Shown: one piece after another, positions 22,540-37,666 of the stretch
Layout of the letters: each line of letters starts with the position of its first letter
Numbering within the stretch: the first letter of the stretch is position 1
NCBI GenBank assembly: GCA_020347705.1
Contig: CP070739.1
Location: 2,541,158-2,578,823 of the forward strand
Length of the DNA stretch: 37,666 bases
Direction: 5' to 3'
DNA from: Methanomassiliicoccales archaeon
GTDB taxonomy: Archaea > Thermoplasmatota > Thermoplasmata > GCA-020350865
Position numbers and translations under genes: made by a program
The notes under the pieces: model-generated
Seen by the model: only the letters and a program-made list of their open reading frames with translations
Told to the model about the DNA's origin: nothing
The model's database searches: none

Positions 22540-22633
22540 TGTGATATCCCCCTATCATTCGGATAATCCACTTCTTTGTATTTTATTGTTTCTTAATCAA
22601 CAAATGATGGATATACCATTTTGGGTAAATCAT

Positions 22634-22755
22634 AAATTTAGAATGATGGACCTGCCCGTGCTTCGGCTTAAGACAGGAGTAAATATAAACATAACCGAAG
22701 CGCTAAGGGCCATCATGTATTTAAGATAATAAAATTTGAATGATGGCCCTGCCCG
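22634..22755 (-). repeat. tRNA-Pro-linked ~97-bp module (inverted and direct copies of the tRNA 3' end around a conserved hairpin)
   Basis: 11-bp perfect IR 22706-22716 / 22740-22750; direct repeat 22634-22658 vs 22732-22755; hairpin 22658-22703. Confidence 0.75.
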
Positions 22756-22818
22756 AATTTGAATCGGAGTCACAGCGTCCCGAACGCCATAGGATTGACC
22801 AAACTACCCCACAGGGCC
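22744..22818 (-). tRNA. tRNA-Pro(CGG), CCA not encoded
   Basis: Cloverleaf GGCCCTG/CAGGGCC-A; D-loop AGTTTGGTCAA; anticodon loop TTCGGGA; T-loop TTCAAAT. Confidence 0.92.
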
Positions 22819-22950
22819 ATTTTTATGGTTGAATGAGATAATACCTTAAAATGATTGCTCTGCATCATATTCTACCCAAACATATGAAATATCAAGACAT
22901 GAGTACATTGCCAATGCTAATCATATATTAGTGTTATCTGAAAAACTTGT

Positions 22951-35489: not shown

Positions 35490-36173
35490 TCACAACTTCC
35501 TCAACCTCTTTTTTGCCATATCCCAAGCATAATCGTAGAGGTGCAGGCCTTTACTTGAGGCTATGATCTCTCCGTCTTCAACTCCGATTTCTTTTGCCAT
35601 CCATTCCTTGACCATTTGCAGTGCGGCCAGATTGGACGGAAAACCGGCCCAGAGATCCCATGATCTGAAATATAGCATGAAATGCAGTTTGCCGTACCTA
35701 ATCCTCGTATCCACTCCTCTCAGACACTGCGGGTCGTTTAATAGAAGGGAATCTGCATTTCCCACGGCCATGTAGGCCTGATTGGTGCCGAAACCGTCCT
35801 TCTTGTACATCTCGATAACTCTCGGGATCTGCCTCTCCAGATCTTCGCCATAGGTGTAGTCTTCCTCTGGACTTTTTATCGAGGTGATGATCTTCTCCAG
35901 ATACTTCTCGACATACTCCATGGAGGACGGTGGAGGAACGCCCAGGCCCTCTGGGATGTCAGGAACCAAGGGCTTGACAAAAGGGTGCGTTATTTGGACA
36001 GTTATGTAATCGAATTCGAGCCGCCTCTGGCCCTCATAGCTTCCCCTGTCGATTGTGTATTCGTGCCCGCTTTCAAATATCTTGGTTAAGCATTGATACC
36101 ATGCATCGGGGAGGCTGAAGGCCTTGATATGCACGAATTTAAGCTCATCTTTTTCTCTCTCTTTCTCACTCAT
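35490..36173 (-). CDS. thyA: thymidylate synthase (archaeal-type ThyA)
   Basis: YTYG, PQCLR (catalytic Cys), YFRSWDLWAGFPSN, GLHLY. Confidence 0.88.
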   Translation of the reverse strand: MSEKEREKDELKFVHIKAFSLPDAWYQCLTKIFESGHEYTIDRGSYEGQRRLEFDYITVQITHPFVKPLVPDIPEGLGVPPPSSMEYVEKYLEKIITSIKSPEEDYTYGEDLERQIPRVIEMYKKDGFGTNQAYMAVGNADSLLLNDPQCLRGVDTRIRYGKLHFMLYFRSWDLWAGFPSNLAALQMVKEWMAKEIGVEDGEIIASSKGLHLYDYAWDMAKKRLRKL

Positions 36174-36295: not shown

Positions 36296-36379
36296 GCGAG
36301 GGTAGCTAAGCTTGGTCAACGGCGCAGGATTGAGGGTCCTGTCCATAGAGGTTCTTGGGTTCAAATCCCAACCCTCGCA
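36296..36379 (+). tRNA. tRNA-Leu(GAG), CCA not encoded
   Basis: GCGAGGG/CCCTCGC-A acceptor; anticodon arm CAGGA-TTGAGGG-TCCTG; long variable arm; GGTTCAAATCC. Confidence 0.95.
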
Positions 36380-36533
36380 TCGTATTAAATTTTTATATAG
36401 TCAAAGATGCGAGGGTTTCGTGTTTGAGTTATGCTGGGACGTTGCTATGTCTTAAACTCAAACACCTAACACTTGGTTCCAATTAAATCTGTCAAACTCG
36501 GTCACCCAAAAAAGCTGTTTGTCCGAGTTATGT
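36367..36533 (+). repeat. tRNA-Leu-linked ~98-bp module plus a degenerate second unit
   Basis: 12-bp perfect IR 36370-36381 / 36406-36417; hairpin 36420-36465; degenerate direct copy of the tRNA end 36465-36488 (17/24); GAGTTATG recurs at +99. Confidence 0.7.
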
Positions 36534-36551
36534 TATTATTCAACCTAAATC

Positions 36552-37666
36552 TTAATCTTCAGGAGGAGGTGGAATTTCCTCACTCAAATCCTCAGGAGGG
36601 GGAGGCAGGGGTTCAGATGGGGGCTCAGACGGGGGTTTAGATGGAGGTTCAGATGGGGTTTCAGGTGAAGGTTCTTGAGCCGCTTCTTGGCTTTCATCAG
36701 CGGTTTCCTCTAATTGTGCATCCTCACCATCTACTGGTTCCGGGCTTTGTTTTATCTCGGGGCCCCTTTTCCTCAAAGCAACCCAAAGGTTGATGACAAA
36801 CAAAACGATTATTACAATTATTAAGAACCAAATCCACAATAGATCCTCTGGCTTAGAGTCCTCGGGCTCTTCTTCAACTATGTCTTTGGATTTTATCGTT
36901 ATCATGACACTTGCACTCTTTCCACCGGCTGTTACGTTCACATAACAGGTCCCTGTAACCGATGATGCCTTGAAAGCTGCAATCTGTAAATCCTGTGAGG
37001 TGATTGTTCCAAGATCATTATTTATACTCCAGGTATAGGTAATATCGTCTATGGGATTGTTTTGCGAATCGTAGGCCTGGGCCAATAAAACCACTGTTTC
37101 GTTTGCATTAATGCTCACCTCGGATGGAGTGATAATAATAGAATTCACGGAGATTGTTGAAAAATCCCATGAGTGAGGAATCAACCCAGAAGTCAAATCA
37201 TTACCAGCCATATCTTTTCCCGTGGTAATTTGGAACGTGTAGGTGGTTCCCAGAGCAAATGGATTATGGAGTAATGTAAGAACTATGTTTCCATTGCTCC
37301 AACCTACAAACCATCCTCCCGGATCAGGAGAACATACATAATCGATAGAGGAAGTATCCATTTTTTCGCTGAATGTTACGATAATATGCGTGCTCAGATT
37401 TACATTGGCCTCATCATCAGCTGGTGAAGTGGAAATAATTATAGGTGCAACCAGGTCTCCCAAAGTGGTAAATCTCCAGGGATTCTGAGCTCCATCGGGA
37501 TCAAGGTCATTTCCCGCAATATCCCTCCCATCGATAATATAAAAATCATAGAGGGTTTGAAAAGCAATCTGATTGTGTGAAAAAGTCACAACCGTATCAC
37601 CACTGCTCCAACTCTCAGACCATCCCCCTGGATCGGGAGCACAAAAATATTTAATCGATGACGTAT
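36552..37666 (-). CDS. surface protein with repeated SbsA/Big_5 Ig-like domains, TM anchor and Pro/Glu-rich tail (N-terminus outside window)
   Basis: Frame open to the window end (TSSIKYFCAPDPGGWSESW repeats the later TSSIDYVCSPDPGGWFVGW); TM followed by RKR; PSEPP repeats. Confidence 0.85.
   Translation of the reverse strand, partial: TSSIKYFCAPDPGGWSESWSSGDTVVTFSHNQIAFQTLYDFYIIDGRDIAGNDLDPDGAQNPWRFTTLGDLVAPIIISTSPADDEANVNLSTHIIVTFSEKMDTSSIDYVCSPDPGGWFVGWSNGNIVLTLLHNPFALGTTYTFQITTGKDMAGNDLTSGLIPHSWDFSTISVNSIIITPSEVSINANETVVLLAQAYDSQNNPIDDITYTWSINNDLGTITSQDLQIAAFKASSVTGTCYVNVTAGGKSASVMITIKSKDIVEEEPEDSKPEDLLWIWFLIIVIIVLFVINLWVALRKRGPEIKQSPEPVDGEDAQLEETADESQEAAQEPSPETPSEPPSKPPSEPPSEPLPPPPEDLSEEIPPPPED

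Follow-up and report, generated by a model that had tools for sequence, protein, structure and literature searches.

A genus-restricted family of hairpin modules with direct and inverse copies of tRNA gene ends in Thermoplasmata

The DNA that follows the tRNA-Leu(GAG) gene in the stretch analysed here (37,666 nucleotides, referred to below as the window) is almost certainly one member of a multi-copy hairpin family and not a device specific to tRNA-Leu. The family is restricted to one genus and is anchored on the ends of tRNA genes. The host assembly (G000) is a 3.22 Mb, 81% complete archaeal genome of the Thermoplasmata. An earlier note on this DNA had regarded the module as a device of tRNA-Leu and tRNA-Pro, a view that gives way here to that of a genus-wide family with copies at most tRNA genes. 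Reading of the tRNA 3' flanks in this genome revealed that in a unit the tRNA end (X) is followed by an AT-rich spacer, then by the same end copied in inverse form (aX), by a hairpin (hairpin A) and finally by the end once more in direct orientation (X'). The spacer measures 23-26 nt and begins with a T run. The inverse copy is 9-13 nt long, reaches 1-4 nt into the genomic trailer and sits 1-4 nt 5' of the hairpin foot; it always matches its own tRNA, trailer bases included. X' is a direct copy of tRNA positions ~61-73, and most terminal X' copies are followed by T runs.

At tRNA-Leu(GAG), X and aX form a perfect 12-bp inverted repeat with arms 24 nt apart (Table 1). The 46-nt hairpin that follows is predicted to fold with -20.8 kcal/mol (z -5.2). 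The direct copy (36367-36390 and 36465-36488) is identical at 17 of 24 positions with an offset of +98, GAGTTATG is repeated at an offset of +99, and GTCAAA is present at both 36400-36405 and 36491-36496. The earlier note had pointed out all of these elements as well as TTTATATA and the T5 run within the spacer, and every one of them was confirmed. Perfect inverted repeats of at least 9 nt were found at the gene end of 11 of the 31 testable tRNA genes, compared with 68 of 20,000 random genome positions; at a length of at least 11 nt the figures were 8 of 31 and 8 of 20,000. The 24-mer of the direct copy is matched at 17 or more of its 24 positions by 17 of the 3.2 million positions of the genome, and ~0.001 such matches are expected per 200 nt. 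The features after tRNA-Leu(GAG) are thus far beyond chance. The sister module in the window, at tRNA-Pro(CGG), has a perfect 11-bp inverted repeat and a direct copy that extends ~16 nt into the trailer.

Table 1. Coordinates of the module at tRNA-Leu(GAG), of its sister copy in the window and of mirror-image modules (window positions unless a contig or locus is named)
Feature	Position	Strand	Evidence or remark
tRNA-Leu(GAG) gene, no encoded CCA	36296..36379	+	ARAGORN; Rfam RF00005, 47.1 bits
X: final 10 nt of the tRNA and 2 trailer nt, left arm of the inverted repeat, AACCCTCGCATC	36370..36381	+	12/12 complementary
AT-rich spacer, 24 nt; includes T5 run (36390-36394) and TTTATATA (36392-36399)	36382..36405	+	sequence
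aX: inverse copy of tRNA 3' end and trailer, GATGCGAGGGTT; 2 nt 5' of the hairpin foot	36406..36417	+	complementarity
Hairpin A copy 1: 12-bp stem, invariant GTTA...TCTTAA at the stem top	36420..36465	+	fold, covariation
Hairpin A copy 1, match to covariance model R1	36417-36469	+	53.1 bits
Decayed direct copy of the tRNA end (17/24), then shortened second spacer ending in GTCAAA	36465..36496	+	repeats, alignment
Second hairpin: remnant of 3' arm, AACTCGGTCAC, and linker, CCAAAAAAGCTGTT	36495..36519	+	alignment with L002; arrays in L110, L111, L112
Third hairpin A copy: 5' arm and loop retained, 3' arm gone where ORF 36552-37664(-) ends	36520..36563	+	nhmmer E 0.013; alignment with L002
Sister copy: tRNA-Pro(CGG) 22742-22819, X 22750-22740, 23-nt spacer, aX 22716-22706	22632..22819	-	
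Sister copy, hairpin A and direct copy	22654-22706 (R1 match); 22657-22632 (direct copy)	-	
Mirror-image 5' modules, GTGGCAGGCAAGCTGCCAC-type GC-rich hairpin	G000:C1, upstream of tRNA-Ala genes at 809962, 907711, 1756948, 2838768; L108:1-100 (shown strand)		spacer 22-24 nt

We used the thymidylate-synthase-like gene beside tRNA-Leu(GAG) to locate the orthologous locus in two relatives (L001 and L002). L001 has a 5' module and no 3' module at this tRNA. L002 has both a 5' module and a 3' array, the first unit of which carries its loop in inverted orientation, keeps the ends of the spacer, 11 of the 12 positions of aX and the stem, in which two compensatory changes have occurred. This unit is followed in L002 by a clean copy of CCCTCGCA, located in a 39-nt stretch that is missing from the window, and then by two more hairpins. 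This alignment identifies positions 36465-36563 of the window as what is left of the second and third units of an old array that the species share, with 36465-36510 opposite a decayed second unit, and the linker CCAAAAAAGCTGTT resembles the linkers of hairpin arrays in relatives (L110, L111, L112). The earlier suggestion of a decayed, older tandem unit was therefore correct, and the weak third hairpin belongs to these remains. The same note had asked whether relatives share the inverted repeat: the layout is common to relatives of the genus, but one close relative has no 3' module at tRNA-Leu(GAG). At four-fold degenerate sites of the neighbouring gene, 27/74, 34/78 and 26/75 positions are identical between the three species (about 36-44%). 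Three other features of these loci were recorded. The thymidylate-synthase-like gene (window 35490-36173, minus strand) has bacterial closest relatives outside the genus, at 64-77% identity (Thermodesulfobacteriota and delta-proteobacterial MAGs), which hints at inter-domain transfer. Five tandem 12-nt units of the GGTTCAGATGGG type (36598-36673) form a low-complexity linker in the C-terminal part of the Big_5-domain ORF 36552-37664(-). Upstream of tRNA-Leu(GAG), L002 contains a repeat of ~140-165 nt that has C-rich flanks and two hairpins, of which one, GGTTAYGC...ATCTTAARCC, resembles hairpin A (L002:2290-2342, minus strand). This repeat is absent from the window and from L001, indicating an insertion polymorphism; four copies with 87-92% identity lie in G000:C1 near 571978, 903051, 1734205 and 1969026, none of them beside a tRNA.

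We also determined how many tRNA genes of this genome carry the module. ARAGORN, run with introns allowed, returned 34 tRNA genes, one of which was a spurious 608-nt prediction, leaving 33. Hairpin A lies downstream of 16 of these 33 genes. A profile search yielded 33 hairpin copies at E <0.05; 21 of them, serving the 16 genes, follow a predicted tRNA on its own strand at a distance of no more than 900 nt, and several others adjoin tRNA ends that ARAGORN missed or that are broken by contig gaps. For 63 distinct hairpin copies we measured the distance from X to aX. Forty-three rows had the required 8 or more complementary positions and no more than 1 mismatch, and after removal by eye of 8 rows that represented other hairpins or AT-rich chance matches, 35 units were left, of which 28 have a gap of 23 or 24 nt. 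Units stack in tandem, and hairpins also stack within one aX...X' bracket. Behind other tRNAs the same plan is followed by other hairpin families (B, C and more), and several tRNA genes are preceded by mirror-image 5' modules in which the first 13 nt are present as a copy and, beyond a hairpin, as an inverse copy, followed by a spacer of ~23 nt. At one tRNA (G000:C1:200011-200130) the direct repeat extends ~40 nt into the trailer.

Several tRNA genes showed other peculiarities. The tRNA-Gly and tRNA-Glu loci contain an extra hairpin of the CCCGTGG...CCACGG type in or beside a duplicated T arm (L113:130-250, L114:310-421 in G004, and G000:C1:3169150-3169260), which may be an insertion or an intron in the T loop. 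The genes for tRNA-Thr(CGU), tRNA-Thr(UGU) and tRNA-His each have, at position 37/38, a structured intron of 120-145 nt, and the three introns are related (G000:C1:841838-842051, 1492782-1493001 and 2063406-2063599), and tRNA-Trp has an intron of 136 nt. Inspection by eye of the 19 intron-bearing predictions found neither hairpin A nor hairpin B in the introns.

The stem of hairpin A covaries. Each of 24 aligned copies carries GTTA and TCTTAA unchanged; 96.9% of the cells of their 12-bp stem are paired, and compensatory changes that altered both sides were observed in 58 cells distributed over 8 of the 12 stem pairs. None of 500 shuffles reached the observed pairing or covariation, and pairing fell to 24-42% when the partner was shifted by 1-3 columns. 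The stems of 60 distinct copies comprise 662 Watson-Crick cells, 5 G-T, 14 A-C and 12 other mismatches. In at least four copies the loop is inverted with the GTTA/TCTTAA motifs intact. Within the unit the hairpin is a subterminal imperfect palindrome, and the unit ends (the start of the spacer and X') are not inverted repeats of each other. A permissive local Rfam scan of the module returned no family except tRNA, the best of the other matches, to miRNA models, reaching 17-21 bits where the cut-offs are 70-78. A scan of the whole window at gathering scores was blank even for both tRNAs, though in the permissive local scan tRNA-Leu reached 47.1 bits, above the cut-off of 29; since two real tRNAs were missed, a blank produced by the fast filters is unreliable here.

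A covariance model of hairpin A (R1) detected 35 copies in this genome and 26, 23, 48 and 61 copies in the four other genomes of the genus, and none in 36 further Thermoplasmata genomes of the same order and class. The named relatives, one of which is a 5.16-Mb chromosome, are MAGs from the Thermoplasmata. Relatives carry the same X-spacer-aX-hairpin-X' unit, often two in tandem with a period of ~97-98 nt, and in some of them arrays of hairpin plus a 12-15-nt linker are enclosed by a single aX...X' bracket. A degenerate hairpin pattern matched 14 metagenomic loci, 10 of which have the full layout, and had 0 matches in viral contigs; a viral origin was rejected on the latter result. In the 5.2-Mb relative, ~20 tRNA matches lie on one strand within 3 kb (G004:C1:4640571-4643566), and among the matches listed there is no hairpin A in that region.

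Orthologous modules were compared between species. The first unit behind tRNA-Ala(TGC) could be aligned in three genomes and those behind tRNA-Leu(TAG), tRNA-Leu(CAG) and tRNA-His in two genomes each. In these alignments aX and X' are near-identical and the hairpins ~70-90% identical, and the DNA past the last X' is unalignable. Between orthologues, the trailer bases and the 5' end of aX vary in concert: the pair is CT/AG at tRNA-Leu(CAG) here and TC/GA in G003, and at tRNA-Glu a TT trailer pairs with AA in one genome and a C with G in another. The inverse copy thus follows its tRNA and the genomic trailer across tRNAs and species, in agreement with the specificity for the tRNA that the earlier note had proposed. 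Presence, copy number and loop orientation differ between species, as at tRNA-Ala(TGC), which has one unit here and two in G004. No clean filled/empty pair was present among the loci compared, and the X/X' arrangement resembles a duplication. The family is conserved well above background, which argues for either selection or an efficient self-correcting process. The family is probably maintained and, judging from this conservation between species, may have been co-opted in the manner of bacterial REPs.

The pairing between these elements could operate in RNA or in DNA. At tRNA-Ala, aX has the sequence GGACCGG or GGACCCA, which is Watson-Crick complementary to the 3' strand (A3 opposite T70), whereas the tRNA itself has G3 (GGGCC..., G3-U70), which is not copied in aX. 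A derivation of aX as a duplicate of the tRNA 5' end is ruled out by this difference and by the leader bases. In the hairpin stems G-T is rarer than A-C (5 against 14), and the mismatches of X:aX have no excess of G-T. The numbers are small, and we regard them as leanings, not proof, toward DNA-like rather than RNA-like pairing. The earlier note had taken the perfect inverse copy as a hint of selection on pairing with the tRNA in RNA. The pairing does track the tRNA; the strict Watson-Crick pairs, the few G-T pairs and the occurrence of loops in both orientations fit complementarity at the DNA level at least equally well. In a read-through RNA, the X:aX helix is predicted to replace the acceptor stem (-66 kcal/mol, z -4.3), so that the earlier idea of two mutually exclusive folds, with the tRNA 3' end drawn away to aX, appears thermodynamically sound in the model. 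A predicted aX:X' helix of 9-12 bp is found in most family members and is only partly formed at tRNA-Leu(GAG). The predicted folds consist of a helix, a symmetric internal loop of 2-4 x 2-4 nt and another helix, and X:aX is a 12-bp helix without bulges; on inspection, the archaeal BHB motif (a 4-bp helix between two 3-nt bulges, one on each strand) is absent from them. An AT-rich block with TTTAAT/TTTATA motifs is situated 24-45 nt upstream of the GTTA motif, a distance that would place a transcript start near the hairpin foot. The position of TTTATATA fits an archaeal TATA box that would start a transcript at the hairpin foot, as had been suggested. In L001 and L002 the 5' modules lie between a conserved promoter block and the tRNA and should therefore be transcribed.

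As the reading that we favour, at a probability of roughly 40%, we propose by analogy that hairpin A is a REP- or PATE-like palindromic repeat that acts, or formerly acted, on single-stranded DNA in the way of the ends of IS200/IS605 transposons. In such a scheme the element would target X by means of aX as its guide and would have X' as its own right end, and one hairpin with one long guide (aX, 9-13 nt) would serve both cleavage sites, as if two IS200/IS605 transposon ends had been superposed. Tandem growth would take place behind X'. Template-switch correction of near-palindromes could keep aX and X' matched to the tRNA, the tRNA copy itself being held by selection on the tRNA; the scheme assumes that aX and X' are re-made for each new tRNA. 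Constant spacing and orientation, inverse and direct copies specific to the tRNA, tandem growth and the two exclusive pairings would all follow from the scheme. According to excerpts from PMC3201880, the left cleavage site of IS608, which equals its target, is 19 nt 5' of a subterminal hairpin and the right site 10 nt 3' of its hairpin, and each of the sites base-pairs with a guide immediately 5' of the hairpin foot, by which it is recognised. Excerpts from PMC3119063 describe archaeal PATEs that lack a transposase, including 52-bp forms with a single palindrome. The likeness, as far as these excerpts describe the IS608 LE/RE and PATE ends, lies in a subterminal hairpin with a guide 5' of its foot that pairs with a site a fixed distance upstream or just downstream, and further in the lack of terminal inverted repeats, a length too short to code, strand-specific orientation and single-palindrome mini-forms (PMC3201880, PMC3119063). 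Unlike IS200/IS605 elements as described in the same excerpts, the present modules have one hairpin for both sites, a 9-13-nt Watson-Crick guide in place of 4 nt with non-canonical contacts, a target that is the end of a tRNA gene and varies by copy, a distance of 23-24 nt plus the guide in place of 19 nt, and no linked tnpA or tnpB.

High copy number, an intergenic palindrome of ~40-50 nt, arrays with short linkers, confinement to one lineage, conservation and possible co-option are shared with REP/BIME/REPIN sequences and their RAYT (TnpA-REP) as portrayed in excerpts from PMC3333891 and PMC8266576. In comparison with that portrayal, each copy here is anchored to and bracketed by a tRNA end, array copies are direct and not alternating, and the module belongs to an archaeal host. 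All 5 genomes of the genus contain Y1 transposase genes, as do 13 of the 36 that lack the hairpin. The flanks of four Y1 loci of G000 were read, in a genome that is 81% complete, and held no hairpin A; a link to these genes was rejected on that account, and none of the four is a RAYT-like gene flanked by hairpin A. Two Y1 copies of G000 share only ~507 nt of coding sequence. A TnpB/omega-RNA arrangement, with the hairpin as scaffold and X' as guide, was likewise discarded, as G000 has no convincing TnpB and only three weak zinc-ribbon matches within giant ORFs. The length of the guide, 9-13 nt as opposed to 4 nt in IS608, and the lack of a linked transposase stand against the single-strand DNA scheme. 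Moreover, conservation between species and covariation of the stem would be predicted by a host function and not by decaying insertions, and the repeat of ~40 nt of trailer described above is not predicted by a cut exactly at the tRNA end. The sequence comparisons make a host-level role likely, besides mobility or in place of it.

The strong rival to the single-strand DNA scheme is a functional RNA module, which we consider possible, at well below even odds. Such a module could be a pre-tRNA trailer (or, for the 5' modules, a leader) in which aX pairs with the tRNA 3' end or with X' and thereby gates processing or quality control of read-through transcripts, as the predicted exchange of the acceptor stem for X:aX and the 5' modules downstream of the promoter block of L001 and L002 would allow. 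It could also be a separate small RNA gene, with the spacer as a BRE/TATA promoter and a start at the hairpin foot, whose product would be hairpin A and a 13-nt tail equal to the tRNA 3' end; the promoter-like AT-rich block and the T runs after most terminal X' are consistent with this form. Or the aX:X' helix could resemble an acceptor stem and form a minihelix that RNase P and RNase Z would cut. Such tRNA-like minihelices, or t-elements, serve as RNase P and RNase Z processing signals in plant mitochondria and in Haloferax 5S rRNA. The modelled aX:X' helix reproduces the acceptor stem and part of the T stem and in RNA could be a processing signal of this kind; unlike t-elements, it does not keep G3-U70, is decayed at tRNA-Leu(GAG) and has DNA-like pairing statistics. 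A function in RNA is further favoured by the conservation of orthologous first units where downstream DNA is not conserved and four-fold sites are near saturation, by compensatory stem changes between paralogues as well as between orthologues, and by the invariance of GTTA and TCTTAA in 24 of 24 copies. However, neither stems nor X:aX mismatches have an excess of G-U over A-C, the A3-U70 pair in place of G3-U70 at tRNA-Ala argues against an identity mimic, inverted loops retain their motifs, one relative has no module at tRNA-Leu(GAG), X' has decayed in the tRNA-Leu(GAG) copy, and there is no Rfam match. A likeness of the 3' arm of the hairpin to a T loop was dropped because, by eye, it showed no correlation with the T-loop variant of the neighbouring tRNA.

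Other explanations have less in their favour. Templated repair synthesis by SD-MMEJ yields inverse and direct copies of the local flank, and the modules might be footprints of breaks repaired by snap-back or loop-out synthesis with template switching, the hairpin having been copied from other loci, with neither mobility nor function. The inverse and direct flank copies, which include genomic trailer bases and vary in extent, are what such repair would leave. We consider it improbable, however, because a constant spacer (23-24 nt in 28 of 35), a constant orientation, 23-61 hairpins per genome and conservation between species are too regular for repair. Partial copies of a tRNA 3' part beside an intact tRNA gene are also the classical mark of integration, and in known cases the copies span 9-23 kb (excerpts from PMC9897764). 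The modules share this direct 3' copy downstream of an intact gene with integrating viruses, plasmids and ICEs, but unlike these, as the excerpts present them, they measure ~100 nt and not kilobases, have no integrase, include an inverse copy and place the same insert at many tRNAs. An origin as attL/attR leftovers of tyrosine-recombinase viruses or plasmids is therefore largely refuted and very improbable: the copies lie at an interval of ~98 nt that contains no ORF, the hairpin recurs at 16 different tRNAs, site-specific integration makes no inverse copy, and viral contigs gave 0 matches. An ordinary terminator hairpin or a chance repeat, for which the T run after the tRNA might speak, is refuted by the counts, namely the enrichment statistics, the size of the family and the covariation. 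We also rejected priming of aX from a mature tRNA, as at a retrovirus-like primer-binding site, since aX complements the genomic trailer (TC, TCAT, TT, C) and not CCA; RVT_1 was found in 2 of 5 genomes of the genus and is absent from G000, G001 and G004.

Transfer RNA genes are classic landing sites of mobile DNA, and in archaea they are well known for being interrupted, split and permuted. What we describe here is a set of hairpin modules in which direct and inverse copies of the tRNA terminus stand at fixed spacing, located at both ends of most tRNA genes throughout a genus. Full-text literature searches and excerpts from PMC9897764, PMC3218864, PMC3201880, PMC3119063 and 10.64898/2026.10.13.758758 yielded no description of such tRNA-end hairpin modules. 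It is rather unlikely, even with both options counted together, that the family represents a new class of mobile DNA that re-templates its guide and its target copy from the adjoining tRNA gene, or else a dedicated small RNA that serves as guide or sensor tRNA by tRNA. If the small-RNA option were true, a promoter in the spacer would drive, for every tRNA gene, a conserved protein-binding hairpin whose 13-nt tail has the same sequence as the 3' end of that tRNA. In the annotation of these genomes, the modules account for spurious partial tRNA matches and odd 'terminator' hairpins. If they are single-strand elements with a long pairing guide, they would constitute a natural, programmable, tRNA-directed insertion system and a possible route to the disruption of tRNA genes; if they are RNAs, they would form an unknown layer of tRNA-specific processing or sensing.
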